Position numbers and translations under genes: made by a program. Below the pieces are notes generated by a model. The model was given only the letters and a program-made list of their open reading frames with translations, was not told where the DNA came from and did not search any database. DNA of 60,881 nt from a virus, in IMG/VR virus record IMGVR_UViG_2528311097_000001. One strand, 5' to 3'. Within the stretch, counting starts at the first letter, position 1. Every line of letters starts with the position of its first letter. This document shows, in pieces, positions 24,710-57,182 of the stretch.

Positions 24710-24720
24710 AGTCAGTCGGA

Positions 24721-29285: not shown

Positions 29286-29297
29286 TGCTGAATTGAT

Positions 29298-30290: not shown

Positions 30291-30311
30291 CAGGGATGGG
30301 ATGTGACGACG

Positions 30312-30716: not shown

Positions 30717-30792
30717 GCGGGCACCTCGCCGTTACTGTTTTTTACCGATTCGGGCAGCCCGTCGTAGCTTACCGATCGTGGGTCGTCGCCGC

Positions 30793-32596: not shown

Positions 32597-32599
32597 GGA

Positions 32600-34213: not shown

Positions 34214-34410
34214 CAGGGGGTGGAAAATCGCGGGTGGTAGAGATCGGTACCGTGCTCCATGAACTCAGAACAGCGATCGCAGACAACCGCCTCGATCTCC
34301 CAACCGATGACGATGGTTGAGGCACCGCACTGACAACGGTACTGAATATGCGGGAACCGTTCGAACGGGCCAGGATCGTAGTCCGTCACCGTGTGGGTTT
34401 CTTCGGACAT
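34213..34410 (-). CDS. Zinc-ribbon microprotein
   Basis: RCQCG...VCDRC; TGATG coupling to terL. Confidence 0.55.
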   Translation of the reverse strand: MSEETHTVTDYDPGPFERFPHIQYRCQCGASTIVIGWEIEAVVCDRCSEFMEHGTDLYHPRFSTP

Positions 34411-34417
34411 GATAGTA

Positions 34418-35068
34418 CTACCAGCCAATCTCAGGAGAGTCCTGGTCTTCGGAGTCTGAGCCATCCTCCCCCGAGCGAGAGGTGTCTTCGACCGCCTCGA
34501 CCGCGATCTCGTCAGGCCCGCCGGTAATGCTGTCGAGGGCGGAGTGCTCCCGCTCGCCAAGCTCGTAGTCGTGATCGTGTTGATGCTGGTGGGCGTGTCG
34601 GTGGTTGTGCTCCATCTCCTCGCCAGGGAAGATCTGCGCTTTGTCGCACAGTTGCCGGTACTCGCGCAGGAAGCGCTCGTCGCCCGATCGGCGGAACTGT
34701 TCGAGAGCGACGCCAGCCATCATCCGAGCGTGTTTCTGCGATCCCTTGGGCGTTGAGAGGATTTCCTCGACGATCTCAACGCGACTGGCCTCCTCGTCAG
34801 TAAGGTAGTTCTCAAGGAACCCCTCGCGATACGCTCCGTGGGTTACGGCCCGGTCATTGCCTTCTGGCGCACCATCCCCCCCTCGATTCCCAACGGCGTT
34901 CTGGTTGCCTTCATGACTCGACCCGTCGGGAGACGTCCCGCGGTGTTTGCGGCACTTGCCCGAATCGAAGTCCGTCCCCCACCCTGCGGCGCGTCCGCAT
35001 GGGTCGCCACGGGAGTTTGTCCCGCCGTGATCGCCGCATTCGTCGGCGTAATTTCGATTGTCCTCCAT
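34418..35068 (-). CDS. terS: Terminase small subunit-like protein
   Basis: CG.HGG...C...GKCRKHRG...GAPEGNDRAVTHGAY motif upstream of terL. Confidence 0.7.
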   Translation of the reverse strand: MEDNRNYADECGDHGGTNSRGDPCGRAAGWGTDFDSGKCRKHRGTSPDGSSHEGNQNAVGNRGGDGAPEGNDRAVTHGAYREGFLENYLTDEEASRVEIVEEILSTPKGSQKHARMMAGVALEQFRRSGDERFLREYRQLCDKAQIFPGEEMEHNHRHAHQHQHDHDYELGEREHSALDSITGGPDEIAVEAVEDTSRSGEDGSDSEDQDSPEIGW

Positions 35069-39061: not shown

Positions 39062-39268
39062 ATGTCCGATATTAAAGAGCGGTTGTTAGATGTGATGGTC
39101 GTCTGTGAACCCTACTCAACGCGCGAACTAGCCCAAGAGGTCGGCGAGCCACGACGGACGGTCCTCTACAACCTCGAGCAGCTCGCCGACGATGGGGAAA
39201 TAAATCGGAAGCAAAGTTCAAAGCGGGATGTGTCCTGGTGGATCGGGGTTGAGGCGGGACAAGGATGA
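39062..39268 (+). CDS. Winged-helix repressor-like protein
   Basis: YSTRELAQEVGEPRRTVLYNLEQLADDGEINRK HTH; start at ATG 39062. Confidence 0.8.
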   Translation: MSDIKERLLDVMVVCEPYSTRELAQEVGEPRRTVLYNLEQLADDGEINRKQSSKRDVSWWIGVEAGQG

Positions 39269-39879
39269 ACCGTCGACAGTACCTCAAGACAGGCGGTGCA
39301 ACGGGCCTCGCCCTCGGGACGGCGGGCTGTCTCGGGTGGCTTCCGTGGCGCGATGATAGTGATCAGAAGCAAGTCCAAGAGGGCGCGCCCAGTGAAGGAA
39401 GTGACGAGCCCACGGAGAACGATACCTCTCCAGAGACAGACGAGCAGTCTGCAACCGGCGAGAAAGAGGAGGATAAGCGGACAGAGGCCGAAAACGAATC
39501 CGAGGGCGAACGGAATCCCCTCCCAGACGAGAATGATACTGAGATCGATCGAGAACAGTACAATGAGAGTGAAGAACGCGACGTAACGGAACTCGACGAA
39601 TCATCCGTCTCCGTCGTAACTGATGCAACAGTTGACGATAGCGGGAGTGTAACTGTCCAGATTAAGGTGACAAATACGACCGACGCGACGATTGATGGCG
39701 TCGATCTCGAAGTCATATATCTCGATAGTGCGGGTAAGGAGATCGGGTTGGACTTGAAAGTCGTTCAGGGGCTCGGGCCGAGAGGAACAGAGTCCGTCGA
39801 AGCTCGTGCAAGCCCAGTCGATCTGCGTGGAGATATCGCAGAAGTGAGCGTAACCCCGACGCCACAGAACTACTCGTAA
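39265..39879 (+). CDS. Tat-exported lipoprotein with FxLYD-like Ig domain
   Basis: MNRRQYL...TAGC lipobox, acidic linker, VTNTT...VIYLDSAG domain; ATGA-coupled to repressor. Confidence 0.75.
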   Translation: MNRRQYLKTGGATGLALGTAGCLGWLPWRDDSDQKQVQEGAPSEGSDEPTENDTSPETDEQSATGEKEEDKRTEAENESEGERNPLPDENDTEIDREQYNESEERDVTELDESSVSVVTDATVDDSGSVTVQIKVTNTTDATIDGVDLEVIYLDSAGKEIGLDLKVVQGLGPRGTESVEARASPVDLRGDIAEVSVTPTPQNYS

Positions 39880-39881
39880 CC

Positions 39882-41090
39882 CTATGGGATCTGTTGGACG
39901 GCCTCGAACGGGTTCGCCCACTGGTTGCCCGATGAATAGATGTTGACGAACCCATGTTCGTCGCGCGTATAGCGCGATGGGACACCACTCTGTTCGATTC
40001 CTGCACCAATTCCGGGGTGCGAACACCGGTTGTCCTCGAAGTAAAAGCCGTCGAGTGGGACGCCGCGAATCCGAGCGTGGGGAGTTCCACCGCCCTGATT
40101 GTGGTTGATGAAGGGGAGATCTGGAACTCGCTTGGCGAGGATATCACTCCCGCGGACGAGCATCGTCCCCCCTGCTCGTTGCTCCCAGTTCGAATCGGAC
40201 GGGTCCGACGACCCACTCTCGTTTTCCCCAACACGGTGCATATCAAGTGGATGCGAGCTGGTCCACGGCCCGATCGTCGACTCAAGAACGTAGTAGTTCG
40301 CGTCGGCATGGCCCGACCCACACATTGCGTGACGAGCGGCATCAAGGTATGATTTATAAACAGTCACATCGCCGTGACGAATGTCGACACAGTAGCCGTA
40401 TGATGTCATCATTGTGTTGTGGACGTGACTGTACGCGACAATTGCGTTCGAAACCGCCCCCTCACCCCCGACAGCAATCCCTTGTACTGAGAAGGCCCAC
40501 ACTTCGGAGTTGTCCACACGGCAGTTGTCGCCCTGGATGTGAATACCGCGGGCGAACCGTGCCTCGCGCCATCGCTCGCGCTCAGCTTCGCTCCCTGGAG
40601 CGAACGGGAAGTACCCTGGTATCGCCTGATGCTCTGTAACACTCGTATGCGGTCCACGGATCTCGACGCCCGTGATGCGTGCATTATCCTCCATCCGGAT
40701 GAGGCCAGTTCCATTCGAGCCGCCAGCCCATGCAGGCGACGAGGTGCCTTCATCTTCTGTGAGGATCGTCGCTCCACCAGTAGACGATGACCGACCCGAG
40801 GCGATCGTAACGTCCGTGACGGTAAGGGTCGTACCGGAAAAGTCGTAGAGGTTCTCCGACGGGAGCCAAACGACCCGCCCGTCGTTTTGCGAGGCGTGGT
40901 GCTTGAGTTGCTCGACAGTATCGGCCTGCACGTCCGCGTCCCCGGGCTGGATGTCTTGAAGGGCGGGGACGCCACCACTCGGCAGCCGACCCGCACCAGG
41001 ACCGTTATACTCAACAGTACAACCCGCCACGCCCACCACCGCCGCTCCGGCAAGCCCGGTGAGGAATTGGCGCCGGGTGGTCGGGTTCAT
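39882..41090 (-). CDS. Tat-exported lipoprotein with right-handed beta-helix
   Basis: TRRQFL...VAGC lipobox; DNCRVDNSEV...QGI, YGYCV beta-helix rungs. Confidence 0.75.
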   Translation of the reverse strand: MNPTTRRQFLTGLAGAAVVGVAGCTVEYNGPGAGRLPSGGVPALQDIQPGDADVQADTVEQLKHHASQNDGRVVWLPSENLYDFSGTTLTVTDVTIASGRSSSTGGATILTEDEGTSSPAWAGGSNGTGLIRMEDNARITGVEIRGPHTSVTEHQAIPGYFPFAPGSEAERERWREARFARGIHIQGDNCRVDNSEVWAFSVQGIAVGGEGAVSNAIVAYSHVHNTMMTSYGYCVDIRHGDVTVYKSYLDAARHAMCGSGHADANYYVLESTIGPWTSSHPLDMHRVGENESGSSDPSDSNWEQRAGGTMLVRGSDILAKRVPDLPFINHNQGGGTPHARIRGVPLDGFYFEDNRCSHPGIGAGIEQSGVPSRYTRDEHGFVNIYSSGNQWANPFEAVQQIP

Positions 41091-41177
41091 TTCTCAGTCA
41101 AGAGAACGGTAGTATAGGCAATAATACTTACGAACCGTCCAGATAATTCGTCAAGTCCACAGGGTGGAAGGACGGGG

Positions 41178-44024
41178 TTACTCGAGCCGGGATTCTAGAT
41201 CGGCGAACTTATCCCCGATAGACCCACCCGAGCCGGAGGCTGTTGTCTCATCGTCCGGTGCATCCTCAGCAGCACTATCCGCGGTGTCGTCTCCATCCTC
41301 AACCAGGGACGTAGGCGTGTACCGCAGAGGTTCCTCACTCGCCGACAGGAGATCCTCAGTATCCGCCAGATCGCCAAGGTCGTCGAAGGGGACGGCCTCG
41401 CCGTGATGGATGAGCGAAAGGTCCGCTGCCCGTGTCGTCCCTTCAGGAACGATTACGACGGCCCAGTGTTCCCGTGAGAGAGATGGCTCGGGCACGAGTT
41501 CGGTCGGTGCCCCAACCGCGACGTACTCCTCGCGTTCGGGATCGCCTTCTTCAAAGTCGGATTCGCGAGCGGGATACTTCCCAATGGCACCCGATGAGTC
41601 GATGTCTTCGCGTGTTTTGAACGACGCTATCGACGTCCCGTCAGTGTCCTCGAGCACCCAGTGATATCCGTCGTCCGGGTCGGGATCGTACCACCACACC
41701 GCGTTTCCGCCCTTGACGCGGAGCATGGGCTCGCCGTCGACTGTGACTGTTCCGAGATTGTACGAGCGCCGACGCCCGTTCTCGTCGACCTCGCGGCAGT
41801 ACATCGGATCGGTGAGCGTATCGTAGACCTTCCATGCTTTCTCGGGACGGGCGGCGTAGAGACATCGTTCGCCGTCCTCGATGGCGTCGTGGAGGTGGCG
41901 AAGGGTCTGTCCGGGGCTGGACTCGCCGGTCGAGTCTTCGAGCTCCACGCGGACGTTCTTGCCTCCTGAGAGGGCAGCGAGTTCGGGGTTCTCCTCCATG
42001 AACCGTTCGCGGGCCTGGCGTGAATCTTCCGGGGTGACGATGTCCCACGAAACGGCATCCTTGAAGGCCCGCTCGATCGACGCGAACCCGTCGCTGGATC
42101 GGCCGATGGTCTGTTGCTCGATCTCGGTGTCGAAGCCTGCGTCAGTGAGGGCGTCGTAGAGTTCCTTGATCGCTTTGCGGTGGTCGCCCTTGCCGTCAAC
42201 GGGCGAACCGCTGATCTTCTTGAAGAGAGTGATGCCACGGGACGTCGTCTTGAGTTTGACCTCACCGTCGCGCTTCTCTCGCTCAACGAGGTCGTCGCCG
42301 ACCATGTCGAGGACACCCCACACCTGGGACTCGTGGCCGAGGTCTTCGCGATCGACGCCCAGATTATCGATGAGGCGGTGTTGGATTAGATCGGCAGAGA
42401 CAAAGCCGTCATCATCACCGTGCTCGATCGCGACGTCATGGACTGTCTTACAGGTCTGGCGTTCGACACGGTCAAGGTCGATGTCAGCGACGGCCATCGA
42501 CTTTCGGTTCCCGCTATCGTCGAGGATCGCACCGGCCCCGTCGAGCTGCCCGTCGCCGCGATTGAGGAGTAGCTCGTCCATGAGTTGCTGGTCGGACTTT
42601 GGCTCATGTCCGTCTCGGCGGACGATCCGCTCGATATGGTGGTCGGCTTCGGTTTGAGTGATCGTTGGCGGGAATGGCGGGAGTGCGTAGACACGGTATG
42701 GGTCCGGCGGCCCGACCGAAGTCTTCATCCAGACATGATATTCCTCTTCGTCGCGGAGTGTTTCCCACTTGAGTCCAAGATTTTTCCCGACGACCTTGCA
42801 GGCGTCGGCTGAGCCGACGGAGAAGGACATCTTCGTATCGCACTGGCTGAAGAGTGCTCCGACGATCTCAGGCGGGAGTTGATCGGGATACTGGCAACAG
42901 AGGAATAAACAGAGCCGCGAGGTCCGCGCCTTCGAGAGCATCGTCGGGAGTGAGGACCCCTCATGAGCCAGCAGATCAGCTTCGTCCATAAGGAGATGGA
43001 AGTTATCCGGGCCGCTCCCTCGCGAGCTCTTATCACCATCCCGGTCGCGTGCGGCGGCCCACGTCCGGCGGAGGATGGCCGTCCCAACCATCTCTTTGAT
43101 ACCCTCGTCCTCTTTGTTCATCCGCACGATGAGGATCTTGCCCTCGTCAATCACCTCTTGAAGGTTGATCGTATTGCCCCGGTGGGCGAACACGCGCCTC
43201 GCGATGGGGTTCTCAACCCAGTTTTTGAAGCGCCTGCGGATCGCGTCCAGGTCGTCATCATCGTACTCGGCGAGCTTATCGGCGAACAGCGCGAGGAAGA
43301 TGTGGCCCGATGCGTTGACCATGTCCCTGTAGCGCTCGCGGTTCTCCTGATCCGCGAGGATGAAGTACAGGTCGATCATCGTGAACTCGGCGTCGTGGCG
43401 AGCGGCGAATCGGATGATGTTCTCCGCGATCGCGTCCATCAGCGGCCCCCAGTAATTACTCGCGCCGAGCATCTGCACCAGGTCGTTAAGGATATTCTCG
43501 ACGATTAGTTCAAATTCGGGGTGGTCCGGGGAAACGCCAGGGTCGAGGAAGTTGAACCCGGTCTGGGCAGACCGAGTGCCGGCGGGCTCAAGCCATACGA
43601 CGTCGCCTTTCCGGTGGTCGGGGAGGATGGAGTAGAACCGTTTTGCACCGTCGCCTTTGGGTTCGATATAAATCATGCCGTCGCCGGACTCGGCGATCGT
43701 CCGGCCGGCATTCATCATGAGGTTCGACTTCCCATAGCCCGTGCTCCCGAAGAGGACAGTGTGCTGGCGAAGGTCCGTCTGGTCGATTGAGGCGTGGCCA
43801 CCGCGACGCGTTCCGACGCCGACTGCGATGGGGCTCTCGGCGTCAGCTCGCGGCGACCGCATCATCTGACGGGCGAGATACCCGGCAAAGACCTGCTCGT
43901 TGCTGTGTTCGTCGGTTCCATGTGACCGGAGCGTCTCATTCCCTTCGACGGCCTCGGTCGACTCCTCTTCCCAGATGTAGAGGCCGTCATCAGGGCTCAA
44001 GGGTTGTGTTGGGGCAGCCGCCAC
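41178..44024 (-). CDS. virD4: VirD4/TraD-like coupling ATPase with C-terminal wHTH and nuclease-like domains
   Basis: HTVLFGSTGYGKS Walker A (43725-43748), IYIEPKGD, FNFLD, LLMDEAD Walker B, SKARTSRL..QYPDQL. Confidence 0.85.
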   Translation of the reverse strand: MAAAPTQPLSPDDGLYIWEEESTEAVEGNETLRSHGTDEHSNEQVFAGYLARQMMRSPRADAESPIAVGVGTRRGGHASIDQTDLRQHTVLFGSTGYGKSNLMMNAGRTIAESGDGMIYIEPKGDGAKRFYSILPDHRKGDVVWLEPAGTRSAQTGFNFLDPGVSPDHPEFELIVENILNDLVQMLGASNYWGPLMDAIAENIIRFAARHDAEFTMIDLYFILADQENRERYRDMVNASGHIFLALFADKLAEYDDDDLDAIRRRFKNWVENPIARRVFAHRGNTINLQEVIDEGKILIVRMNKEDEGIKEMVGTAILRRTWAAARDRDGDKSSRGSGPDNFHLLMDEADLLAHEGSSLPTMLSKARTSRLCLFLCCQYPDQLPPEIVGALFSQCDTKMSFSVGSADACKVVGKNLGLKWETLRDEEEYHVWMKTSVGPPDPYRVYALPPFPPTITQTEADHHIERIVRRDGHEPKSDQQLMDELLLNRGDGQLDGAGAILDDSGNRKSMAVADIDLDRVERQTCKTVHDVAIEHGDDDGFVSADLIQHRLIDNLGVDREDLGHESQVWGVLDMVGDDLVEREKRDGEVKLKTTSRGITLFKKISGSPVDGKGDHRKAIKELYDALTDAGFDTEIEQQTIGRSSDGFASIERAFKDAVSWDIVTPEDSRQARERFMEENPELAALSGGKNVRVELEDSTGESSPGQTLRHLHDAIEDGERCLYAARPEKAWKVYDTLTDPMYCREVDENGRRRSYNLGTVTVDGEPMLRVKGGNAVWWYDPDPDDGYHWVLEDTDGTSIASFKTREDIDSSGAIGKYPARESDFEEGDPEREEYVAVGAPTELVPEPSLSREHWAVVIVPEGTTRAADLSLIHHGEAVPFDDLGDLADTEDLLSASEEPLRYTPTSLVEDGDDTADSAAEDAPDDETTASGSGGSIGDKFADLESRLE

Positions 44025-45121
44025 TAGTCCGCCACCTCTGGTTCAGAATCGCCGAGGTCGAGATTGGAATGGAACGTGTGGCTTTCCCGCGGGACGCCAG
44101 GGCCCGACTCGCGAGTCGCCCACTTCACGTCGGGGACCTCAATTGACCCGTTCGGAAGGTGGAAGAGCCCTTCCCATTCTTGGATCGTGAATGCGTTCGA
44201 CGTTCCGTGGAGGAAGCGGCCGACGGGCGAGCGTTTCCGAACGCGCCGCCGGACGAGATCTTCAGCCTCGTTTATATTGCCAGTGTGCTTGAAGTATGTC
44301 GGTCGAAGTTTCTGCTTGTTGGCGTAGTCGTATTTTGAGAAGGACTTAGCGGCCTTTTCAAGAGCGGTTTGGACATCCGATTTATCAGGGCCGATCGCCA
44401 TGAGACGGATACTGGTTCGAAACGTCTCATCGGAGACCTGCTTTTGCATATCTTTCGCGAGGTCTTCGTTGAGGTCAGACTTCACGACCTTTGTCGTCTC
44501 TTGGCGCAAGCCGATTGAAAGCGTGCCCTGTCGGGTCGAATCGGCGATTCGATCACCGTCGCCGCCGATCCGTCCGCGCTTGTACCACTTGCTCGAGATG
44601 GGTTTGCCACAGCCCTGAACAATCAGTCGGACATCATTCTCGTTGACGAACTTCGGGAGTGTCGACGAATACGGGTCGCCATCCAATGGATCACCGGTCG
44701 AGTCGCGGAAAGATATCGGGTGGATGGCGTCGAGTTGTGGTTCGACGCGGCAGGTAAACACCCACTCGCCGACCTTGGCATCGGGGAGTGGGTCTTGGTA
44801 CGTCTCCATCCGGCTGTTGGCGTACTTAGAGTTGATCAACGACTGGATGTCGCTAAGGTCCTCGTCGGCAGCAGTGATCTGGGCAGTCAATTGATCTCGG
44901 AACCACCATTCGAAACTGAAGGTCCCGCCTTTTCGACCAGTGCCGACAGTGTTATAGATATCTTCAAGGAAGTCTGCGCCGCCGCTCATACCAGCAGTAT
45001 CGACATAGGGCCGCACCTCTAAGCGGTTCGGATGTTCGATTTCGTGATAGAGCCGATCGATGCGATCCTCGAGAAGTTTCGTCGGTTTACCACCCCAAGA
45101 GACCCAGGAAAGGATGCTCAT
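44024..45121 (-). CDS. Conjugation-module protein coupled to VirD4-like gene
   Basis: 365 aa; TAG/GTG 1-nt overlap with virD4; FSFEWW, HPI, FRTSIRLMA. Confidence 0.55.
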   Translation of the reverse strand: MSILSWVSWGGKPTKLLEDRIDRLYHEIEHPNRLEVRPYVDTAGMSGGADFLEDIYNTVGTGRKGGTFSFEWWFRDQLTAQITAADEDLSDIQSLINSKYANSRMETYQDPLPDAKVGEWVFTCRVEPQLDAIHPISFRDSTGDPLDGDPYSSTLPKFVNENDVRLIVQGCGKPISSKWYKRGRIGGDGDRIADSTRQGTLSIGLRQETTKVVKSDLNEDLAKDMQKQVSDETFRTSIRLMAIGPDKSDVQTALEKAAKSFSKYDYANKQKLRPTYFKHTGNINEAEDLVRRRVRKRSPVGRFLHGTSNAFTIQEWEGLFHLPNGSIEVPDVKWATRESGPGVPRESHTFHSNLDLGDSEPEVAD

Positions 45122-46140
45122 TCGTCGCCACCCCTGCTGTGCTGGAGTAGTTCCCAGTTAGGCCCGAGGTCGTACCACTTGCGTGCGAAGAGGTAGGCCG
45201 GGATGGAGATGATTGGTAGAAGTGCACCCACTGTAACGCCCACTACGAGCGATGCGATACCTGTAGCGACGCTCATTCGAAGGACGAACAGTTCGCGGTC
45301 GTAGCGGGGGACCCAGTCGACTCGGGAGCAGCACCGATCAGCACGAACGGCAGTCTCGAGGTTTGTAAACCCAATAATGCCGCTTGCGATGTACATCGAG
45401 AGCCCCAGCGCAAACTGCCCGCTGGTCGATGCGAGTGGCACCGTCAGAGCCCCACCAACGAGCCCTGCGCTGGCGATCGCGAGAACGGACCACGGGCCAT
45501 CCGAGAAATTAAATTCCTGAACAGTCGTCCCACGATGATCATTTTTCTCGCGTTCGTGGAGGTGAAGCCAGTAGCTCCCCACGAGTAAGATCGTGCCTGC
45601 GAGGACAATAGCGGAGATATTAGCAGTGTCGAGGTAGTTCAGGGTCGGAACAAGTCCAGATGTGAATGCAGTCATGATCGTGGTGAGGGCAGTAGCAGCG
45701 AAGAGGAGGACGATACCAGCGGCAGCTCGTCGAGCGAATAGTGTCTTAACAGGTCCACGGCTGACCCAGTGAATCACCTCATCAAGACGGGTGTTGATCT
45801 GTTGGTCACGGCGATTCTGTCGAACGCGCATCTCCCACTCTTCGGTCCCGTGACAGTCGAGGCAGACGAGGGCATGGCTCTCGTCAGAGAAATCAACCTC
45901 ATCGAGGTCGACGATGATCCAATCGCCGAGAGAAGTACCGTCGACAACCGTCCCGCAGCACTCGCAAGTCGAGCTGGCATTCCCGATCGTTCGGAGGATG
46001 ACGCTTAGGTCATAGTCGTGTGGCGGCGTCGCTGTGGGGCTATCCCCGTCCGTCTCACCAGCACCATCCGAACTATTTTGAGTTGTCACGTTGGAATTTG
46101 TTCCAGTAGACATATTATTAAGCATTATCACCACCTCCAT
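45118..46140 (-). CDS. Polytopic membrane protein with N-terminal Cys4 site
   Basis: CECCG...VCLDCH followed by about six hydrophobic helices. Confidence 0.6.
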   Translation of the reverse strand: MEVVIMLNNMSTGTNSNVTTQNSSDGAGETDGDSPTATPPHDYDLSVILRTIGNASSTCECCGTVVDGTSLGDWIIVDLDEVDFSDESHALVCLDCHGTEEWEMRVRQNRRDQQINTRLDEVIHWVSRGPVKTLFARRAAAGIVLLFAATALTTIMTAFTSGLVPTLNYLDTANISAIVLAGTILLVGSYWLHLHEREKNDHRGTTVQEFNFSDGPWSVLAIASAGLVGGALTVPLASTSGQFALGLSMYIASGIIGFTNLETAVRADRCCSRVDWVPRYDRELFVLRMSVATGIASLVVGVTVGALLPIISIPAYLFARKWYDLGPNWELLQHSRGGDE

Positions 46141-48070
46141 TGTCAGACGGATCCTTGCCGAGTTTGAGCAGTTCCTCCGCTAACGGTTTGATCTTTACCG
46201 GGTACGTCCCGTGGTCGTCGATATCAGCTAAACAGTGTGAATATCCCCGCTTTGGCGTCCCTTTGTTCATCTTCCGGGCGAAGGCGCACTCGTTCTCAGT
46301 GAGGCCCAGCTTCTCGCCATACTCGTCGAAGTGGATGCCCGGTTCTTTGTGAATAAACTTGTGTGACGTAAGGTTCGCAAGCGTCTCGGCCTTCGGATGG
46401 ATAAAGAAGTCCTGAGCCTGCTGGGTGATCATATGCAACGAGATGTCGAAGTGTCGGGAGTGGCGGACAATCTTTTCGAGCCACTCGAGACTGTTTGGCG
46501 TCTCAAACAGCCGGTGGATCTCGTCGATGGCAATGACCATGCGTTTGTCCGACGCCTTAGCGCGCTGGTAGATCACGTTGAATGGAGCCTGGAGTCGGAG
46601 GGCCTTCTCCCGATCTGAACCGCCCTGTTGCACGTCGATTAGCGTGGACTTGCCTGAGAGGTCAATGTTCGAGCGGCGCCCCAGATTGGCAAAGTTTCCA
46701 CCCTCGAACGAGTCCATCGCCATGTGAAGGTCCGCAGCAGCGTCTTCCCATTTCTCGGAATCGCGAACGTTCGATGCGCGATCGTCACTCGAGAAGTTGT
46801 ACTCGCCATCTGGCGTTCGGGCGAAGAATCCCTCGGCATCGTCGGCGATCATGCCAAGCGTCTCGCGGAGATCGAGCGGTGCTGGACTCGGATTTGAGTG
46901 GGTCTTCGGATCTTCGTTGATCTCCATCCGGTAGGCGGTCTTGCGGATCCCTTTCTGCAGAACCGTCCACTCGTCTCGTGTGAGACCGCCGTCAGAGCCG
47001 CCGGCCTGCGAGAAGAACGTCTCAAACCACCCCAGCGTCGTCGATGCCCAATGGTTGAACGGGTTGAGTCCCTCTTCCTCAACAACGTGAATGGGCGTTG
47101 GCTGGATCTCCATCGGGTTGACAGCGTTCTCACCACCGAGAGGGAGGCGCTTTGCTCCAGTTTCATGGGCGAGTTTGTCGAGGCCGTTGACCGGGTCAAT
47201 CATCACGAGGATGGTGTCGGGATCCATCGCAAGCCGTCGAAGCAACATCATCATCGTCCCAAAAGACTTGCCTGACCCGAGGTCGCCGATAGTGAGTGCG
47301 TTGTAGCCCCCCTCACGATTCCAGCGGTCGAAGGCGAACGGCTCGTCAGTAACCGCGTGGTACCCGATCAAGACACCATCGGGCTCGTAAAGCGTACTCG
47401 CAGAAAACGGGAACATCGCACCAACGGCATCCCCAAGCATCTTTCCCGACGCACCACCGAGCATGTCCTTCGCGATCGGGGACGTGCTTGTTAGTGCGTC
47501 GTCGCTCTGGTAGTCGATCGTTCGGATCGATATATCGTTCTTGTTGAGCTCGTCAGTGATCGAGCGTGCCTCGTTAGTGACGACATCTCTCGACTTGCCT
47601 CGAATGCGAATGTAAACGCCGACATCCCAGAGTTTCTGTGACCCCGTCTTGAGTTCATCGCGGATGAACTGGTGCTCTGCGATCTGCTGTTTTGTGAGGC
47701 CGATATCCGGATCCTCTTGTTTCTGCTGCTGGCGGAGTTTGACTTTGAGCTTCTGAATCGACCGGTCGATCTTCTGGACCATCTGCTGACTGTCAGCCGG
47801 ATTGAAGTGAATGACGGGTTCGACAGCCGTGTTGGGGTGCGTATTGATCAGGTCAATGATTCCCGGTTCGATCTTCGAGGGCATCGACGTGATACAGAGG
47901 TGCTTGATCCAGTCTTCGCCAGACCGGCACCCGCCTAGTTCGTAGGCGACCGACGACGGGCCGACAGCACGCGCTTGGTGTTCTCGGGCCTCATCGACGG
48001 ACCCAGTGTCCGCACTCGTGTCGAACTTGTCCGATACTTTTTCCTTCAGGTGTGCGATTTTTCCACTCAT
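46118..48070 (-). CDS. virB4: VirB4-like T4SS ATPase
   Basis: FPFS...GVLIG...PFAFDRW, NALTIGDLGSGKS (47264-47287), IDP, AVNPME, VIAIDEIH, RHSRHF...TQQ. Confidence 0.9.
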   Translation of the reverse strand: MSGKIAHLKEKVSDKFDTSADTGSVDEAREHQARAVGPSSVAYELGGCRSGEDWIKHLCITSMPSKIEPGIIDLINTHPNTAVEPVIHFNPADSQQMVQKIDRSIQKLKVKLRQQQKQEDPDIGLTKQQIAEHQFIRDELKTGSQKLWDVGVYIRIRGKSRDVVTNEARSITDELNKNDISIRTIDYQSDDALTSTSPIAKDMLGGASGKMLGDAVGAMFPFSASTLYEPDGVLIGYHAVTDEPFAFDRWNREGGYNALTIGDLGSGKSFGTMMMLLRRLAMDPDTILVMIDPVNGLDKLAHETGAKRLPLGGENAVNPMEIQPTPIHVVEEEGLNPFNHWASTTLGWFETFFSQAGGSDGGLTRDEWTVLQKGIRKTAYRMEINEDPKTHSNPSPAPLDLRETLGMIADDAEGFFARTPDGEYNFSSDDRASNVRDSEKWEDAAADLHMAMDSFEGGNFANLGRRSNIDLSGKSTLIDVQQGGSDREKALRLQAPFNVIYQRAKASDKRMVIAIDEIHRLFETPNSLEWLEKIVRHSRHFDISLHMITQQAQDFFIHPKAETLANLTSHKFIHKEPGIHFDEYGEKLGLTENECAFARKMNKGTPKRGYSHCLADIDDHGTYPVKIKPLAEELLKLGKDPSDNGGGDNA

Positions 48071-48071
48071 A

Positions 48072-49511
48072 TTAACTCATTGCCTCTTTTGTCTCCGCAT
48101 CTGCATCCGCGGCCTCCGTTGCTGTGTCCGACTGCTCCATCTCCTCGACAAGGGCCGCAGCAGCCTCTTCTATCGAATCATACTCTTTGCCAAGACTCGC
48201 CTCATCGGGCGCGGTCGATCCAGGCGATTCATCCGAGAGTTCCGGTTCGGAAGCAGTACCGAGATCTTCGTCGACGTTGTCTTCCGGGACGTCTTCAATG
48301 GTGCCAGCAGACCGCTGTAGATCGGAGATGATCTGCTGATCGAGTTCGTCATCGGCCAACTGGTCGGGCGAACGCATGTCGCCCTGCGTTTCCGTATATT
48401 CGCGAGACATCGTGACCAGCGGGAGTGAACGGTCGTCCCGTTCTTCAGTTACGACGCGCTCGCCGGTCCACGACTCCTCGAGGACGCTAATCAAGTCGTC
48501 CATTGAGAGTTGGTCCGCATCGCAACCAGTGATGCCCGCGAGATTTTTCTTGAGAGAGTTCCGTCGACCATTCATGACCTGCTCTTGTCGATAGCGAATC
48601 TCTGGGACAGTGAGATCCCTCGAGGCCAGCAATGAAGCGATTGTGGAGCCGACCAGAGGAAACTCGTCCAGACGGCCGAGGACCCGGTGGCCCTGCATTT
48701 GGACCTCCTCCATCGTGACCGGAGCAAGCATCTGGAAGCCGCGAATGCTGGCGTTCTTCGACTCCATCTGATTTGAGAGGTTGTCCTTGTACATCGAAAC
48801 GTTCTGCTGGAGATTCGGGTTACTCCGGACATCCGTGTCCCCCAGTCGATCGCCGAATTTTCGCTTAACACCCTCAGTATCGATTTTAACCGAGCCGTTT
48901 CGGAGTTCTCCCGAGTGGCTGAGGGAATTGACGATGTCCCCGAGCTCGTCGGCGGCAGTCTCCCAGTCGGCCTGTGTGGCAAGCGAGAGTTCGGCAGGAT
49001 CAATACTCACACCACCAACCAGAGCGCCATCGAATCGCCACACAGCATCGGATTGTGGTGCAAACCCATCGACACGGGTGAGATCCTCCAAGGCACGACG
49101 ATCGCCGTTAGTCGAGATACTGTCCTTCGTGATCCGTCCCGAGTCGCCCCTGTGTGCCGACCGGTAATCAGACCCGAATTTGAACCCCTTCTTGCACTTC
49201 AACCATTTGTAGAAGGACATCCCCGGTGGCGATACGTAGATGCCGACGACGACGGTTCCGATGAGGAGTGTCGACATACCGAGGGCGAGGAGTGCCCAGT
49301 TGCGGCCGTCGGGGACGACGTTGCCGACGATGAGGAACGTCATCAGCGACCCGAACAAAAGAAGGATGTCCGAGAACGCGATGTCTGTATCGGTAAAGTC
49401 CATTACCCCCATCGTCCCGAGCGAGTCGAGATTCCGACGGGTGGCGTTCTTCTTCCCGTGGAGCGATTCAACCAAATCTTCGATTTGTGTTTGTTCCGAG
49501 TTGCTTGCCAT
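48072..49511 (-). CDS. VirB3/PrgI-like membrane protein with large cytoplasmic domain
   Basis: Two N-terminal TM helices, directly upstream of VirB4; start MASNSEQ (49511). Confidence 0.6.
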   Translation of the reverse strand: MASNSEQTQIEDLVESLHGKKNATRRNLDSLGTMGVMDFTDTDIAFSDILLLFGSLMTFLIVGNVVPDGRNWALLALGMSTLLIGTVVVGIYVSPPGMSFYKWLKCKKGFKFGSDYRSAHRGDSGRITKDSISTNGDRRALEDLTRVDGFAPQSDAVWRFDGALVGGVSIDPAELSLATQADWETAADELGDIVNSLSHSGELRNGSVKIDTEGVKRKFGDRLGDTDVRSNPNLQQNVSMYKDNLSNQMESKNASIRGFQMLAPVTMEEVQMQGHRVLGRLDEFPLVGSTIASLLASRDLTVPEIRYRQEQVMNGRRNSLKKNLAGITGCDADQLSMDDLISVLEESWTGERVVTEERDDRSLPLVTMSREYTETQGDMRSPDQLADDELDQQIISDLQRSAGTIEDVPEDNVDEDLGTASEPELSDESPGSTAPDEASLGKEYDSIEEAAAALVEEMEQSDTATEAADADAETKEAMS

Positions 49512-49512
49512 A

Positions 49513-51471
49513 TTAGATCCCTCGTGCGTTATCAACAGTCGACCGACTCTCTGCATTCTGTTCAGCTTCCGAAAGGCCGAGGCCATGATTATCTGACTCT
49601 GCGACTTCCGAGACATCGTAGAACTGCTGGTCGTTCTCTCCACGAACGAACAAGTCGCGTTCGCCGTAGGCATCGTCCACTCGCTTGAACGTCTCTCCAG
49701 TAACCATCTCCGACGATCGGGGGACATTGAGCATCTTCTGGAACTCGATGTCGGTTCCCGGACCGCTGCCGGTGAAGTACCCTGCACGATACTTCTGGTC
49801 GCCGGGCAGATCGTCCGGAGAAGTGACCGTCGTAATCGACGGATCATCCACAGAGACACGTCCCTCGGGAGAGTCCCGCACAGTAGCACCAGACGAGGTC
49901 CCCGACGAGGAGTGGCTTGCACTCGCGCTAGCGGACGGCCCTGACGACGGGCTAGGTCCAGATCCACCAGGAAGAGCTGTCCCCGACGGATTCGTTCCAG
50001 TAGATGCTCCCGCAGACGTGGGTGCGCTTGCGCCCGTGTCAGCGGATGCGAGGTCAGAGCCACCCGTAGAGAGTCCCGACGAGGACGAACCAGAACCGAG
50101 CGCCCCGCCCGTCCCCGAGCCGCCACTGCCGAGTGCGTGCCCATTGACTGCGTTGCTGATACCGCCAGCAGCTGCCGACGTGCCAGACCCAGCAGCCCCA
50201 CCAGCGGCGGCACCAGCTCCAGCAGCGCTACCACCGCCGAGTCGGCCAAGCGCACTCGAGATCGCGCCAAGGCCGACCGATCCGGCGATGATGGCACCGG
50301 CACCAGCACCGACCCGCTTGAACCAGAACAAGTATATCGACGAGATGAACGCCAAGAGCCAGATCACGATGATTGCGACTGCGCTCACAGGGACAGCGCC
50401 CCACTCTGCAGGCCCCGGCAGGAGGTTCTCGATCGCACCGAGAACCGAGTATCCCACTGAGAGGACGACAACCGCGGGTAATGGGAAAAACGCCGCGGAG
50501 GGGAATAACTCGAGGACGCCTTCGAACGCTTCGGCGACACCCTTCATGATCCACACCTTCGGCACGCTCATGGCGATCAGTATCGGCATGGCTGGGAAGA
50601 TGACATAGAGAAACAGCCAGGTCACGAAGAACGTGAATGCCATCGCGAGGGCGAACGCGCCACCGAACGCATAGAATAGGAGGATGCTGATTCCGGCCGC
50701 GGCATTGTTCGCAGCGATCGAGGATGTATCGGGAGCAATCGTGCTCGGATCAAGTGGAACGGCGTTCATCGCGAACGACGCTGCAAAGAGGATGATCGTT
50801 CCGAGCGCCCACGAAAACGGGATGAGAAGCAGCTTGATCCATGCCTCTTGCTGGGCGATCTTGATCTGCTGGTAGGTCGGCGTCGGCGGCCATACCATCC
50901 CCAGGATATACAGAACGAGGGTCATGATGAGCCAGATCGCCGCCCCTGCGACTAAACTGACGCCGTACCAATACTCGTACAGGATAGACATCAGGTCTCC
51001 ATCGGGTTCGCCACTGACGGCGACCGAGCCATCCTGCATCGGATAGACCGTACTCGACTGGAGTGCCTCGGCCATCGAGACGAGGAGGTCAGTCCCGAAC
51101 GTGAACCACGGCTCGAAGAAACTGATGAGGAGCCCGACGGGATCGATCGATATCGGGAAGATTCCACTGTCATCATTCTCCTCTGGTCGGTAGGTGTCCG
51201 AACCGCCGCCCGTCGCGTTTTCAGACTCGCTTTCTGAATCATTCACAGCATCCCCGCCCTGTGGAGTAGGGTTCGATGGGACCGAGTCGACGCGATCAGA
51301 GGCCGAACTATTACCACTCGCGTTTGGGCTCTCGACGCCCGTCGTCTCATTGGATTGGGCCACGACAGGCCCAGCCCCAACCATAACTACAGCCCCGACA
51401 CTCATCGAGATGAGAAGAACAACCAGCAGGGCAGAGAGTGTCGCGTTGGTCTGTCGGGGACGGGTTATCAT
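49513..51471 (-). CDS. VirB6/TrbL-like polytopic membrane protein
   Basis: Signal peptide (VVAQS), about 8 hydrophobic helices, long Gly/Ser/Ala-rich tail typical of TrbL. Confidence 0.7.
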   Translation of the reverse strand: MITRPRQTNATLSALLVVLLISMSVGAVVMVGAGPVVAQSNETTGVESPNASGNSSASDRVDSVPSNPTPQGGDAVNDSESESENATGGGSDTYRPEENDDSGIFPISIDPVGLLISFFEPWFTFGTDLLVSMAEALQSSTVYPMQDGSVAVSGEPDGDLMSILYEYWYGVSLVAGAAIWLIMTLVLYILGMVWPPTPTYQQIKIAQQEAWIKLLLIPFSWALGTIILFAASFAMNAVPLDPSTIAPDTSSIAANNAAAGISILLFYAFGGAFALAMAFTFFVTWLFLYVIFPAMPILIAMSVPKVWIMKGVAEAFEGVLELFPSAAFFPLPAVVVLSVGYSVLGAIENLLPGPAEWGAVPVSAVAIIVIWLLAFISSIYLFWFKRVGAGAGAIIAGSVGLGAISSALGRLGGGSAAGAGAAAGGAAGSGTSAAAGGISNAVNGHALGSGGSGTGGALGSGSSSSGLSTGGSDLASADTGASAPTSAGASTGTNPSGTALPGGSGPSPSSGPSASASASHSSSGTSSGATVRDSPEGRVSVDDPSITTVTSPDDLPGDQKYRAGYFTGSGPGTDIEFQKMLNVPRSSEMVTGETFKRVDDAYGERDLFVRGENDQQFYDVSEVAESDNHGLGLSEAEQNAESRSTVDNARGI

Positions 51472-51491
51472 AGAAAGGGTCACTGGACGGA

Positions 51492-52010
51492 TTAGAGAAT
51501 GCCGAGCCCACCAGTAACGCACTCGGCAAATGTGAAGCCGAACACGTCGCCGAAGACCATCTGGATTAAGGTCGGGGCGAGGAGTGCAACGCCGAGTCCC
51601 ATGAACCCACGCTTGGCCCAGTTGATGTCGCCCTCGAGCTTACCCGGTGTTTTGTGTATCGCGTAGGACATGCCGGCAACGATCAAGACGCCAAGGCAGA
51701 CGACGAAGCCGATACGTTGGAGCATCGGAAGGCCATTGGCTGCTGCCTGCTGTGTGATCGTGGAACAACCTTCGCCACCAACATCCTGTGACTGAGCCAA
51801 GACAGTCCCGACGGAGAACATGTACGCAGTGATCCCGATTAAGGCGTAGATCGCCATGTCGGCCGCCATGGAGCGTGTCTCGTGAAGGGCATACTTCAGC
51901 CGACTCGATTCTTCGCGATCAAGTGGGTTCGTTCGTGAGCGTGCGATTCGGCCCGCCAGGCCGGACATCGCAGGTTCGTCGTCATCGGTACAGGACGTAT
52001 CTGAGTCCAT
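51492..52010 (-). CDS. VirB2/TrbC-like pilin
   Basis: Hydrophobic leader ending VLA-QSQ, then two TM helices around a basic loop; first gene of the operon. Confidence 0.6.
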   Translation of the reverse strand: MDSDTSCTDDDEPAMSGLAGRIARSRTNPLDREESSRLKYALHETRSMAADMAIYALIGITAYMFSVGTVLAQSQDVGGEGCSTITQQAAANGLPMLQRIGFVVCLGVLIVAGMSYAIHKTPGKLEGDINWAKRGFMGLGVALLAPTLIQMVFGDVFGFTFAECVTGGLGIL

Positions 52011-52032
52011 AGTAGTACACTATCCTCATGTG

Positions 52033-52040
52033 CAATTAAA
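52033..52040 (-). promoter_or_regulatory. TATA box of the T4SS-like operon
   Basis: TTTAATTG 23-30 nt upstream of ATG 52010. Confidence 0.5.
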
Positions 52041-52157
52041 CTTACGTATCGTCCAGTAAATTCGTAAAGTCGTACCGAGCAAGCGAATCGAATGGAGGGA
52101 GTGACCAACCAGTACAACTATAATTGATGCCTCTCGAAATTATCACCACTACACTAC

Positions 52158-52523
52158 ATGTCATCCCGATTGACCCCTGTCGACAACCAGATTCTTACTG
52201 TTCTCAGCCTTGAATGTGCACGCACCCAGGGCTACCTTGCCGACCGGACTGGCCGATCGAGACAACAGATCCACACTCGTCTTCAGATCCTCTCCGAGGG
52301 GAGGGCGCTCCGACGCGTTCATTCATCCACAGCCACCTACGAGCTTATTACAGACCCGCGGGGTGGCGCTGACCAGCCCCTCGTGGAGCTGCAACTCATC
52401 AATCCTGACGGGGACGATCTCGGGACTGAAGAAGTACAGCTTGATTCTGCGGGCGTTCCGGTCGTACATCGCTACCAGTGGTATGACGAGGACGGCGATG
52501 GCGAGCAGCCCGCCGGCGATTGA
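52158..52523 (+). CDS. Winged-helix regulator divergent from the tra operon
   Basis: RTQGYLADRTGRSRQQIHTRLQIL...RRVH..TATYELITDPR. Confidence 0.75.
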   Translation: MSSRLTPVDNQILTVLSLECARTQGYLADRTGRSRQQIHTRLQILSEGRALRRVHSSTATYELITDPRGGADQPLVELQLINPDGDDLGTEEVQLDSAGVPVVHRYQWYDEDGDGEQPAGD

Positions 52524-52911
52524 GGCCGCACCGCACTCCGCTTCCCTGCTCTTCTCACAGCTTCTGGATCGCCCTGTGTCGACACTCGTTGAGGTGTTGA
52601 TTAACTCTGCTCGAGGAGATGTTGATGGTCTTTATTTGATGAAATGTTGAGATTCTATATGACCCGCTGATCTGTTCTGTTGTGATGTGTTCTGAGTGAT
52701 GAAGTGTTCACCAGGATCTGCATGATGAGATGATAGTGTCCTGGAGCCCCTGGGGTATCGGGTGAGCTTTATCGTGTTCTGTGTCCAGTACCGCTTTCGC
52801 ACTGCGCGTCACCCCTGCGGGGTTCCTTACTTCGTCGGAGTTTGAGGCTGTACAGCTATTCTTTTGATGGCTGTAGGGAAGATTAAAGAGAAGAGGAACG
52901 TATCATGACAC

Positions 52912-53469
52912 ATGGCAATAGCAGTGGACTCCACCGTCGAGATGGATACCACCCTCCATCACAATGCTGTCAACGTCCTCCTCGCGATCTACGATGCGGA
53001 AGACGAGACAGCTAACACAAGCCAGATAGGGGCCGTTACGGGGCTCTCAAGTGCCAATATTTCCGGCGGACACGCTCAGACACTTGAACGGGAAGGATTG
53101 ATTGAACGAGCTGGATCTGTCGAGAGTAGCGCGCCGAGGGATACGAACGTCTATACCGTAACACACCGTGGTCGGAAGGAAGCAAAGCGTCTTTTAAATG
53201 AAACCGATGCCGAGGTTCCGATGTCGGATGGGGAGAAGTTGGCCCTGTTGAATCTGCTCAAAGACCATGCCGGTGGCATCGAACAAGCCCCCAGGAGTAG
53301 AGGGCAGGATGCGGTAAGCCGAGAAGAGCTCAAGGAACTCCGTCAAGAGGTAGCCGAAGTTAAATCGATGCTGGAGAGTCACGAAGAGCGGCTGAATGAC
53401 CATGACGATGGTTTCGAAAACGCATGGAATACATTAGAGAAGGTCGTAGATAGAGTAGTGGAAGACTAA
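52912..53469 (+). CDS. wHTH protein with C-terminal coiled coil
   Basis: ANTSQIGAVTGLS...LEREGLIER...VYTVTHRG; heptad tail; start may be 52942. Confidence 0.7.
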   Translation: MAIAVDSTVEMDTTLHHNAVNVLLAIYDAEDETANTSQIGAVTGLSSANISGGHAQTLEREGLIERAGSVESSAPRDTNVYTVTHRGRKEAKRLLNETDAEVPMSDGEKLALLNLLKDHAGGIEQAPRSRGQDAVSREELKELRQEVAEVKSMLESHEERLNDHDDGFENAWNTLEKVVDRVVED

Positions 53470-53813
53470 TCCTCGATCCCAAGCACTTCGCGTACAGTCT
53501 TCTCGGAGAAGGCTGCCTCCAAGACGGCAGGGTAGAAGTCTGCGTTCTTCTGTAGCTTCTCGCCGTGCTCACGGCGATACTCGAGGTTAAGTTCTTGGAA
53601 TTGGAGATCAAGCGTATCTACTTCCTCCTCGGACAGGTACATCGTCAGGGCCGTCTTGTCCTTCGTAGACGGCCTACCAGTAGAGTTTGTAGATGATGTT
53701 TTGCTCGTTTTGGATGTTTTGTTTGTTTGTTCTTCAGTAGACGCTTCGTCCGAATTGTTCTGAAAGCGGGCGTTGAGTGAATCCTTTCGGGAGTCCTTTG
53801 GGTCATCGCTCAT
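53466..53813 (-). CDS. ParA partner (putative centromere-binding protein)
   Basis: ATGA-coupled downstream of parA; disordered N-terminus with KTSKTSKT, then TMYL..E....LD RHH-like segment. Confidence 0.65.
   Translation of the reverse strand: MSDDPKDSRKDSLNARFQNNSDEASTEEQTNKTSKTSKTSSTNSTGRPSTKDKTALTMYLSEEEVDTLDLQFQELNLEYRREHGEKLQKNADFYPAVLEAAFSEKTVREVLGIED
53707..53721. repeat. Intragenic inverted copy of par-promoter repeat
   Basis: GTTTTGGATGTTTTG is the exact reverse complement of CAAAACATCCAAAAC at 54618-54632. Confidence 0.7.
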
Positions 53814-54565
53814 CGGACCACCTCAGCCATTTCGAGGAACACGTCTCCCATATCACACTCCTCCTCATGGTGGAATATGGACGTTCCGTTCGACCAGGCC
53901 CGTTTGAGTGCGACGCGTTTTCGGATCTCGTAGACTGGCACGGCCGGCTCGAACGTCTCTCGGAACCACGTCATCATCTCGTCTGACTCGCCGTCGTTCT
54001 CGACACGGTTCGCCGCGATCGCGTCGACGGCGATCGTCTCGTCGAAGTTCTCCTCGATAGTATCGACCTGGTCGAACAGTATCTCGACGGCACGGGTCGA
54101 CGTTGATTCGGCCAGCCCTGGGACGACGATGCTATCGCACGCCAATAGTGCCGAGTCCGTGAGGATCCCCAGCCACGGTGGGCAGTCGATGATAATGTAA
54201 TCCGGGTCAGCGTCGAGCTGCTCGAGCGCCATGTCGAGGCGTTCTCGATTTCGCATCTCGGTGATGAGCTCCGGTTCGGCGTTGAACATCTCGATGTTCG
54301 ACGGAGCCAAGCGTAGTTCGTCATGGTCGACCAGAATGTCGTTGATTGTTGACTGGTCCGAGAGGAGTGTGTCGTATAGAGACGGGCCGGAGGCATCGTC
54401 ATATTCGCCCGTGAATCCGAGTCCCTCAGTTGCGTTCCCCTGGGGGTCGAGGTCGACAAACAGTACGTCCTCGCCAACCTGGTTGAGTGCTCCCGCGAGA
54501 TTGATCGCGACGGTGGTCTTTCCGACGCCGCCCTTCTGGTTTGTGATGGCTATCTTTTTCGCCAT
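53810..54565 (-). CDS. parA: ParA/Soj partition ATPase
   Basis: NQKGGVGKTT deviant Walker A, VDLDPQGN, YIIIDCPP. Confidence 0.95.
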   Translation of the reverse strand: MAKKIAITNQKGGVGKTTVAINLAGALNQVGEDVLFVDLDPQGNATEGLGFTGEYDDASGPSLYDTLLSDQSTINDILVDHDELRLAPSNIEMFNAEPELITEMRNRERLDMALEQLDADPDYIIIDCPPWLGILTDSALLACDSIVVPGLAESTSTRAVEILFDQVDTIEENFDETIAVDAIAANRVENDGESDEMMTWFRETFEPAVPVYEIRKRVALKRAWSNGTSIFHHEEECDMGDVFLEMAEVVR

Positions 54566-54569
54566 GTCT

Positions 54570-54641
54570 GTATTGTCTATCCAAAACGTCAAATAAGTAC
54601 CGTCAGACAAGTCTATCCAAAACATCCAAAACAGACAATAC
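54570..54641. repeat. Direct and inverted repeats upstream of parA (parS/operator candidate)
   Basis: GTCTATCCAAAAC at 54575 and 54611, ATCCAAAAC at 54624; GTATTGTCT (54570) / AGACAATAC (54633) inverted pair. Confidence 0.7.
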
Positions 54642-56949: not shown

Positions 56950-57182
56950 CGCGAGTCCCCCATGAGATCGGCCAGCAGTTCCTCGTAACCGAGTTCGTCA
57001 GTCGTACAGCCACACTCGCCGCGGCCATGGTGTGGGATGTTCGACTTCGAGATCGAGAAGCACATCGCGAGCTCGCGATTCGTCCACTCGCCATACAGCA
57101 GGCGGATCGCCGCGCATTCCCGGGGCGAGAGGTCAGTCGACGGGCCCGGCGAGTGGACGTCGATGATCGGGTCGGTGCTCAT
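56946..57182 (-). CDS. Small HTH protein
   Basis: LSPRECAAIRLLYGEWTNRELAMCFSIS...H..G.CGC. Confidence 0.6.
   Translation of the reverse strand: MSTDPIIDVHSPGPSTDLSPRECAAIRLLYGEWTNRELAMCFSISKSNIPHHGRGECGCTTDELGYEELLADLMGDSR

Follow-up and report, generated by a model that had tools for sequence, protein, structure and literature searches.

In bacteria, a prophage and a type IV secretion system (T4SS) are known to travel as one transferable unit both in tandems or nests of a phage with an integrative and conjugative element (ICE) (PMC13651849) and in Hodor megaplasmids, which carry prophages as cargo (PMC12934698). These associations consist of two separable elements with their own integrase or replicon; the phage-ICE tandems and nests are described by their authors as not being hybrids, and conjugation spreads the prophage (PMC13651849, PMC12934698). 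Phage-plasmids are typically without conjugation machinery (PMC12934698), and P1-like phage-plasmids acquired mob genes or an origin of transfer (oriT) mostly after ceasing to be phages (PMC10879196). Here we describe the viral record IMGVR_UViG_2528311097_000001 (60,881 nucleotides, hereafter the window), the middle part of a provirus that measures 76,967 bp and resides in a Halalkalicoccus. Unlike the bacterial associations, the provirus holds a T4SS in a single viral backbone with a single att pair, the conjugation cassette having no integrase, and its host is an archaeon; no separate ICE equipped with an integrase and att sites of its own, as found in phage-ICE tandems and nests, was detected.

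Among the archaeal conjugative elements, pNOB8, pT33-3 and the thaumarchaeal ICEs share with the provirus the VirB4 and VirD4 core and, as far as the ORFs of the provirus were scanned, the lack of an HUH or other classical relaxase (PMC12857230, PMC6563490); they are without virion genes, whereas VirD4 of the provirus carries a fused nuclease-fold domain. Among the viruses, phiCh1, phiH1 and ChaoS9 (Vertoviridae) resemble the provirus in the contractile tail, RepH, ParA, the presence of two recombinases and the location of an Int1-type recombinase after the tail fibres. Unlike these viruses of 55-58 kb, the provirus is 77 kb long, is integrated at secY and encodes VirB4, absent from all three; no blastn match to them was obtained over 26967-34213, TerL and the major capsid protein (MCP) are closest to those of other viruses, and neither the orthologous head and packaging proteins nor the genome-level similarity that mark Vertoviridae were found. 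The closest TerL (52%) and a collinear tail module (mostly 30-51% identity) belong to the 84.9-kb phage-plasmid of Actinarchaeum halophilum (NZ_CP071309), which, unlike the provirus, is extrachromosomal, encodes Orc1, and has no RepH match, no VirB4 or pilin and a differing head module. This element carries a lone distant TrwB/VirD4-like gene (38653-40029; Pfam E 5e-24) by orc1/cdc6 and a TFIIB-like gene, and may be a mobilisable phage-plasmid.

The T4SS has its counterparts in plasmid modules of Halalkalicoccus (NZ_CP144463, NZ_CP144464, H. salilacus and H. ordinarius), which show the identical seven-gene order and the same promoter core, helix-turn-helix (HTH) regulators, lipoprotein, FxLYD protein and 41-bp non-coding block. 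Unlike these modules, the provirus-borne copy has one HTH gene and the 41-bp block upstream of the operon, and its lipoprotein and FxLYD genes are of another lineage. In our judgement the chances are about even that an integrative temperate myovirus took up the conjugation cassette of a Halalkalicoccus plasmid, kept it intact and probably transfers both ways.

The provirus and its conjugation operon

The window corresponds to C1:1001576-1062456 of a complete haloarchaeal genome (chromosome 2,809,118 bp, six plasmids). The provirus is bounded by a 17-bp repeat, ATGCGCCAGATGTTCGG, present in exactly two copies in the whole genome (attL and attR, Table 1), and the secY integrase gene begins 55 bp from the start of attL. 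The site is empty in 8 congeneric genomes, in which no integrase stands behind secY; in most of them the end of secY is the sequence standing after attR here, and in 4 of the 8 the genes located here at 61.3-64.4 kb are found within about 0.5 kb behind secY. The integrase, the attL/attR pair and the empty site in relatives, as expected of a temperate tailed virus, were thus all observed. No internal att copy was detected in the element at up to 4 mismatches, nor a degenerate att near the T4SS, and neither the virion module nor the cassette is bounded by a repeat longer than 13 bp. Integration at a tRNA gene was considered and rejected, the window being without tRNA genes and the tRNA-Pro at 72.6 kb being without a duplicate. 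Homologues of the secY integrase (41-49%) in four other genomes (G311, G335, G400 and G289) are located at a distance of 7-34 kb from secY, suggesting that a family of elements targets the secY/spc region.

Seven coupled open reading frames (ORFs) of a T4SS, proposed on the minus strand of 41178-52040 in an earlier note made from the letters of this DNA, are present at 41178-52010, with six junctions that span overlaps of up to 23 nt and gaps of up to 23 nt, four of the six lying within 4 nt. The TATA element claimed for this operon was also recovered: a TATA-like box stands at 52035-52040, or -30 to -25 relative to the pilin ATG, and its conservation extends to four plasmid copies. All seven ORFs and the ATPase motifs are intact. 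As to gene identities, the assignments of pilin, VirB6-like protein, VirB4, membrane protein, accessory protein (DUF8128) and VirD4 held; for the VirB3/PrgI-like protein, VirB3 itself was not recovered, the orthologues being called TraC-like (PF26593). The VirB6-like protein has a 32% homologue in a related locus (L005) that passes TrbL_3, and the VirD4 profile matches the DotL and TrwB structures. VirB4 with mating-pair genes, and the coupling protein VirD4, both characteristic of ICEs, are present together.

The plasmid-derived block is wider than the seven genes. Since plasmid modules have homologues of the genes starting at 39265, 39882, 52158 and 52912, the cassette is taken to span 39265-53469, about 14 kb, and neither an integrase nor an att was found inside it. 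The operon is flanked by an imperfect 33/40-bp direct repeat, which the pilin and lipoprotein promoters share; with up to 9 mismatches allowed over 33 nt, the genome contains these two copies only, and in the plasmid copies of these two promoters the common part is the core of TFB-recognition element (BRE) and TATA only. As an att or cassette boundary the repeat was rejected: cassette genes lie beyond it and both copies are promoters, the one a duplicate of the other. The cassette lipoprotein family (39882-41090) has a further homologue in the left arm of the provirus (window -2218 to -1307), near small membrane proteins that form a possible lysis cluster. The host chromosome encodes three more paralogues (about 34%), and in the Actinarchaeum virus a homologue stands behind the tail genes. 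The family may act on cell-wall glycans, the virus using it for lysis and the T4SS for pore assembly.

The myovirus virion module described earlier as intact-looking proved so: the frames of TerS, TerL, portal, head morphogenesis, probable protease/scaffold, MCP, neck, sheath, tape measure, hub, wedge and spikes are open, with no interruption seen. TerL and portal were identified by phrog_38 and phrog_146, and the HK97-type MCP was matched weakly (phrog_264, an encapsulin model and the Hardycor1 MCP). Both sets of proteins characteristic of Caudoviricetes, TerL, portal and HK97-fold MCP on one side and sheath, tape measure and baseplate on the other, are encoded. The plasmid-type initiator and partition genes of a phage-plasmid (RepH and ParA) are present as well; the provirus is integrated in C1 in this assembly, and the extrachromosomal upkeep in the lysogen by which phage-plasmids are also recognised was not seen.

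Relatives of the backbone were found on both sides of the cassette. Halomarina contig G190:C30, from a myovirus in which no VirB4 or VirD4 was detected, encodes ParA, RepH, TerS (70%), TerL, head morphogenesis, neck and sheath proteins in the same order and strand, and ParA of the provirus is 56% identical to that of this T4SS-free myovirus vs 37% to that of a host plasmid. In a viral contig from the JGI, which shows the RepH-ParA-TerS-TerL synteny as well, RepH lies 7 kb upstream of TerL, with small early-gene homologues and no T4SS between them; the distance here is 23 kb. Contig G190:C7 encodes a homologue of the secY integrase, followed by PCNA, PadR and, 30 kb further, a head gene, and left-arm genes of the provirus also match related viral contigs. 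Since both arms (RepH, ParA, PCNA and integrase) have viral relatives, both belong to the viral backbone and the T4SS is an insertion. The claim that the T4SS is not a separately inserted ICE was borne out by the single att pair, the cassette without integrase or att and the viral nature of both arms. That claim had rested on a single integrase and the lack of flanking repeats; two tyrosine recombinases and the 33/40-bp repeat were in fact found, the latter being a promoter rather than a boundary. The operon extent of the earlier note holds for the seven genes, and not for the plasmid-derived block or for the element, which reaches 16 kb to the left of the window.

Table 1. Features of the provirus and its conjugation cassette, in window coordinates
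Feature	Position	Strand	Remarks
attL	-15941		last codons / 3' end of secY; 17-bp exact direct repeat; extrapolated coordinate, outside window
Integrase of the element	-15886..-14483	+	467-aa tyrosine integrase, Phage_integrase Pfam; outside window
Second tyrosine recombinase	1..774	+	phiCh1 Int1-like, tail-fibre invertase or resolvase type; phrog_216
Contractile-tail module	2516..25320	-	tail spikes, baseplate, hub, tape measure 14245-17790, sheath 20613-21986, neck; PHROG matches
Head and packaging module	25327..35068	-	MCP 25327-26397, probable protease/scaffold 26967-29285, head morphogenesis, portal 30893-32596, TerL 32600-34213, TerS 34418-35068
Small winged-helix protein, putative viral repressor	39062..39268	+	weak HTH Pfam; adjoins left cassette edge
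FxLYD-domain lipoprotein (twin-arginine signal, Tat), cassette accessory	39265..39879	+	NF038353 above cut-off; homologues beside plasmid T4SS
Tat-signal lipoprotein, cassette accessory	39882..41090	-	homologues beside every related T4SS, 32-35%; shares 40-bp promoter repeat with pilin operon
Promoter/operator repeat copy 1	41118..41157	-	33/40 bp match to copy 2
VirD4/TrwB-like coupling ATPase	41178..44024	-	fused winged helix and PD-(D/E)xK-fold domain; TrwB_AAD_bind above cut-off
Accessory protein, DUF8128 family	44024..45121	-	orthologue annotation; 76-83% aa
Membrane protein	45118..46140	-	4 transmembrane segments; evolving fast
VirB4 ATPase	46118..48070	-	VirB4-like conjugal ATPase models E 5e-41, 8e-40; Walker A/B intact
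TraC-like (PF26593) protein in VirB3/PrgI position	48072..49511	-	2 transmembrane segments; PF26593 from orthologues; start ATG 49511 likely
VirB6/TrbL-like polytopic membrane protein	49513..51468	-	8 hydrophobic segments
VirB2-like pilin	51492..52010	-	T4SS_pilin E 4e-5, TrbC/VirB2 E 1e-3, both under cut-off
Promoter repeat copy 2	52032..52071	-	holds BRE/TATA of operon
Small HTH regulator of cassette	52158..52523	+	divergent from pilin; 59-60% to plasmid orthologues
41-bp non-coding block	52798..52838		near-invariant in six modules; oriT or HTH-operator candidate
Winged-helix regulator of cassette	52912..53469	+	right cassette edge; upstream of operon here
ParA and small partner	53466..54625	-	viral backbone
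RepH-type replication protein	57179..60271	-	viral backbone; homologues in ChaoS9, phiH1, phiCh1 and two viral contigs (JGI; Halomarina G190:C30)
attR	61026		17-bp exact direct repeat; outside window

The recombinase at the left end of the window (43% identity to phiCh1 int1, 60% to HCTV-5) follows the tail-fibre genes, the same position as in phiCh1 and ChaoS9. As the integration enzyme it was rejected; it is Int1-like, and the real integrase is located at -15886. Between it and the tail spikes stands an asparagine-synthase-like gene of lower GC (859-2469). One part of a tail-spike gene (3179-3463) shows 79% identity to a host chromosomal gene (C1:545594-545878), and this similarity suggests a domain exchanged between host and virus. 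The Halomarina contig G190:C30, 98 kb in length, has its tail genes in two separated blocks and may be a permuted or double provirus. A tail/baseplate-like cluster with no evident head genes was also noted among metabolic genes on a 359-kb plasmid of Halomicrococcus (11779-24154), possibly a tailocin or contractile injection system.

Origin of the cassette and its residence in the virus

The region of 41.4-52.1 kb is collinear, at 74-78% nucleotide identity, with operons on two plasmids of Halalkalicoccus FCH27 (NZ_CP144463 and NZ_CP144464), and the T4SS block is also collinear with contigs of H. salilacus and H. ordinarius. In a quick phylogenetic tree, VirB4 falls inside the clade of the Halalkalicoccus plasmids (SH-aLRT 100), where it forms a group (97) with two metagenome copies and the copy on the 261-kb FCH27 plasmid. 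Synonymous divergence (dS) between the provirus and the plasmid copies is 1.0-1.5, and that among plasmid and metagenome copies 0.1-1.1; the ratio of nonsynonymous to synonymous divergence (dN/dS) of the T4SS genes is 0.05-0.3 (the TraC-like row of genome G249 was left out of this gene-by-gene comparison). The closest VirB4 is 90% identical in amino acids, with dS above 1, and no close donor of the cassette was found in the host or in the databases. Judged by these divergences, the cassette is not a fresh capture from any sampled donor. On the plasmids of the host there are three more VirB4 loci, all distant (22-30%), at C3:340-346 kb, C3:25 kb and C4:21-26 kb; a VirD4 homologue is present at two of these. 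The copy on the 261-kb FCH27 plasmid has two split genes, its TraC-like and virD4 genes being frameshifted (18432-19999 and 24075-26956) by decay or by sequencing error.

The G+C content at third codon positions (GC3) of the cassette is 0.69, compared with 0.70-0.72 for the viral head and rep genes, 0.70-0.77 for the viral modules, 0.77-0.80 for the plasmid copies and 0.82 for the chromosome. The winged-helix regulator, which follows virD4 in the relatives with context, has been relocated upstream of the operon in the provirus, and the 41-bp block was relocated together with it. The lipoprotein and FxLYD genes show 34% and 25% identity to the plasmid copies, vs 94% and 67-78% among the plasmids. 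The GC3, the moved HTH gene, the duplicated promoter and the intact ORFs fit residence and rewiring of the cassette inside the virus.

Carboxy-terminal domain of VirD4 and the conserved 41-bp block

For archaeal conjugative plasmids and ICEs the relaxase has not been identified (PMC12857230, PMC6563490), and for this reason the VirD4 fusion and the 41-bp block form a pair worth testing. The carboxy-terminal part of VirD4 was modelled with a pLDDT of 90-92. In model comparison, residues of about 513-603 match winged helices, while nearly all top structural matches of residues of about 612-884 are restriction-endonuclease folds, the best being PaqCI (Z 9.1, rmsd 3.5, 125 aa), followed by AF1548, the P. 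abyssi repair endonuclease, Hjc, Can2 and Nt.BspD6I; a Foldseek search against the PDB gave nothing significant. The domain has 92 distinct relatives, mostly within proteins of 900-1400 aa. Its catalytic-type residues are conserved in 65 relatives, and the near-invariant G-H, D and E-x-E positions are kept here as H615, D645, E694 and E696. No relaxase Pfam was detected on VirD4; of the small ORFs of the element, the scan covered a part. The predicted winged helix and PD-(D/E)xK domain make VirD4 a relaxase candidate; a fold shared with endonucleases is not proof of function.

The 41-bp block is conserved in six modules whose synonymous sites are near saturation, and it is a candidate for either an oriT or an operator of the HTH regulator. 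An exact 16-bp copy of its 5' half lies in the left arm at window -14127 to -14112, at the stop codon of a small gene 1.8 kb from attL, and may be either chance or a second half-site.

Possible modes of transfer and their meaning

Dual transfer is the likeliest working of the element, ahead of its rivals, and we put its chance of being correct at about one half. The 14-kb cassette would have been captured from the Halalkalicoccus plasmid pool by non-site-specific recombination. From the observed 17-bp att sites the integrase would excise a 77-kb circle, which could enter the lytic cycle and, with the head and packaging genes present, be packaged into virions. Alternatively, the circle could express the pilin-VirB6-TraC-like-VirB4-VirD4 operon from its own TATA promoter, which conservation supports. 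The winged-helix/PD-(D/E)xK tail of VirD4 would then bind and nick the transfer origin, most likely 52798-52838, as the VirD4 fold and the conservation of this block suggest, and the ATPase would pump DNA through the pore. In the recipient, the circle would be held by RepH and ParA or integrate at secY, so that the element would combine the behaviour of a phage with that of an ICE, the integration functions being common to both.

Several observations weigh against dual transfer. The signs of rewiring and of purifying selection could stem from an unsampled plasmid before the capture. Replic_Relax gave no Pfam match (PF13814) and is an Atlas lead only (0.83). No paper showing conjugation by a haloarchaeal T4SS was found, and the literature search, incomplete in coverage, yielded no account of this provirus and none of a T4SS in any archaeal virus. 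Furthermore, no other virus with the same T4SS was found, leaving a singleton. In a sample of 401 haloarchaeal genomes, a related TerL was present in 18 and a related baseplate in 12, and in none of the other genomes did VirB4 occur within 300 kb of either; likewise, at the 39 TerL-related viral loci no T4SS genes were present within 10 kb. Co-occurrence of VirB4 and VirD4 with TerL elsewhere, raised in the earlier note, thus failed to appear in these samples, and its hybrid of virus and conjugative plasmid stands as an att-bounded tailed provirus with a plasmid-type T4SS, the sole case found, rather than as a hybrid kind of virus. No matching VirB4 was found in IMG/VR by a single query and alignment (a pattern-based search of limited reach); among GenBank phages VirB4 gave just 18-24% matches to gut contigs and one Enterococcus record, and no second T4SS-bearing element was located at homologous integrases. 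Contig L040, which looked viral by Pfam, was rejected as a second case, the 10 kb examined being without head or packaging genes.

The strongest rival, still unlikely, is a virus on its way to becoming an ICE: with 14 kb gained, the genome would exceed the head capacity and conjugation would be the sole horizontal route, the virion genes being not yet decayed. Several related viral genomes and contigs are indeed of 50-58 kb, the element being about 63 kb without the cassette, and P1-like phage-plasmids turned into mobilisable plasmids offer a precedent (PMC10879196). However, no broken virion gene was seen, although the long T4SS branch and the GC3 shift predict virion decay if the capture is old, and the closest tail/TerL relative is an 85-kb replicon, albeit with a differing head module.

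Ranked below it, and also improbable, is a recent neutral passenger, which the resident provirus would have received from an unsampled plasmid by recombination and of which the virus would make no use. The singleton status agrees with this, as do the abundance of the module in haloarchaea, in which VirB4 homologues occur in 244 of the 401 genomes and the T4SS is a common plasmid module, and the other VirB4/VirD4 loci of the host on C3 and C4. The lack of a close donor points the other way, and so does the completeness of the cassette, which lies between viral operons together with its promoter, its regulators and the conserved non-coding block, no gene being broken.

Use of the T4SS for another purpose, either Hfr-style (high-frequency recombination) mobilisation of the host chromosome or exclusion or protein export favouring the lysogen, is quite improbable. 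An oriT inside an integrated element mobilises the flanking chromosome, as in Hfr strains and ICEs, and two surface lipoproteins accompany the operon; the fused nuclease fold of the coupling protein and the conserved cis block point instead to transfer of the element's own DNA, and no effector genes were seen. Nested or tandem elements, either an ICE entered by a 39-kb virus by means of the 1-774 recombinase or a virus that received an ICE, have two tyrosine recombinases and the known bacterial Phage::ICE and ICE::Phage arrangements (PMC13651849) in their favour and are very improbable, given the lack of bounding repeats longer than 13 bp, the integrase-less cassette, the Int1-like enzyme at the tail-fibre end, its place in phiCh1 and ChaoS9 too, and the viral homologues of both arms.

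Returning to dual transfer, the provirus is apparently a variant of the phage-conjugation chimeras and the first in archaea, a single case known from sequence. A dual-route element in a culturable haloarchaeon would allow a test of whether a virus leaves by mating and thereby escapes receptor limits; if it is a fused dual-route element, a transition from virus to ICE would have been caught in progress. More tentatively, and rather doubtful as a whole, one genome may serve as an infectious tailed virus and equally as a conjugative element able to transmit itself, with the VirD4 PD-(D/E)xK nickase as the missing archaeal relaxase and the 41-bp block as its oriT. If true, the same VirD4 fusion would serve many haloarchaeal T4SS loci, as the distinct relatives of its domain suggest, and the fusion of VirD4 with winged helix and nuclease, together with the 41-bp block, would offer a concrete enzyme and substrate for the relaxase question of archaeal conjugation (PMC12857230).

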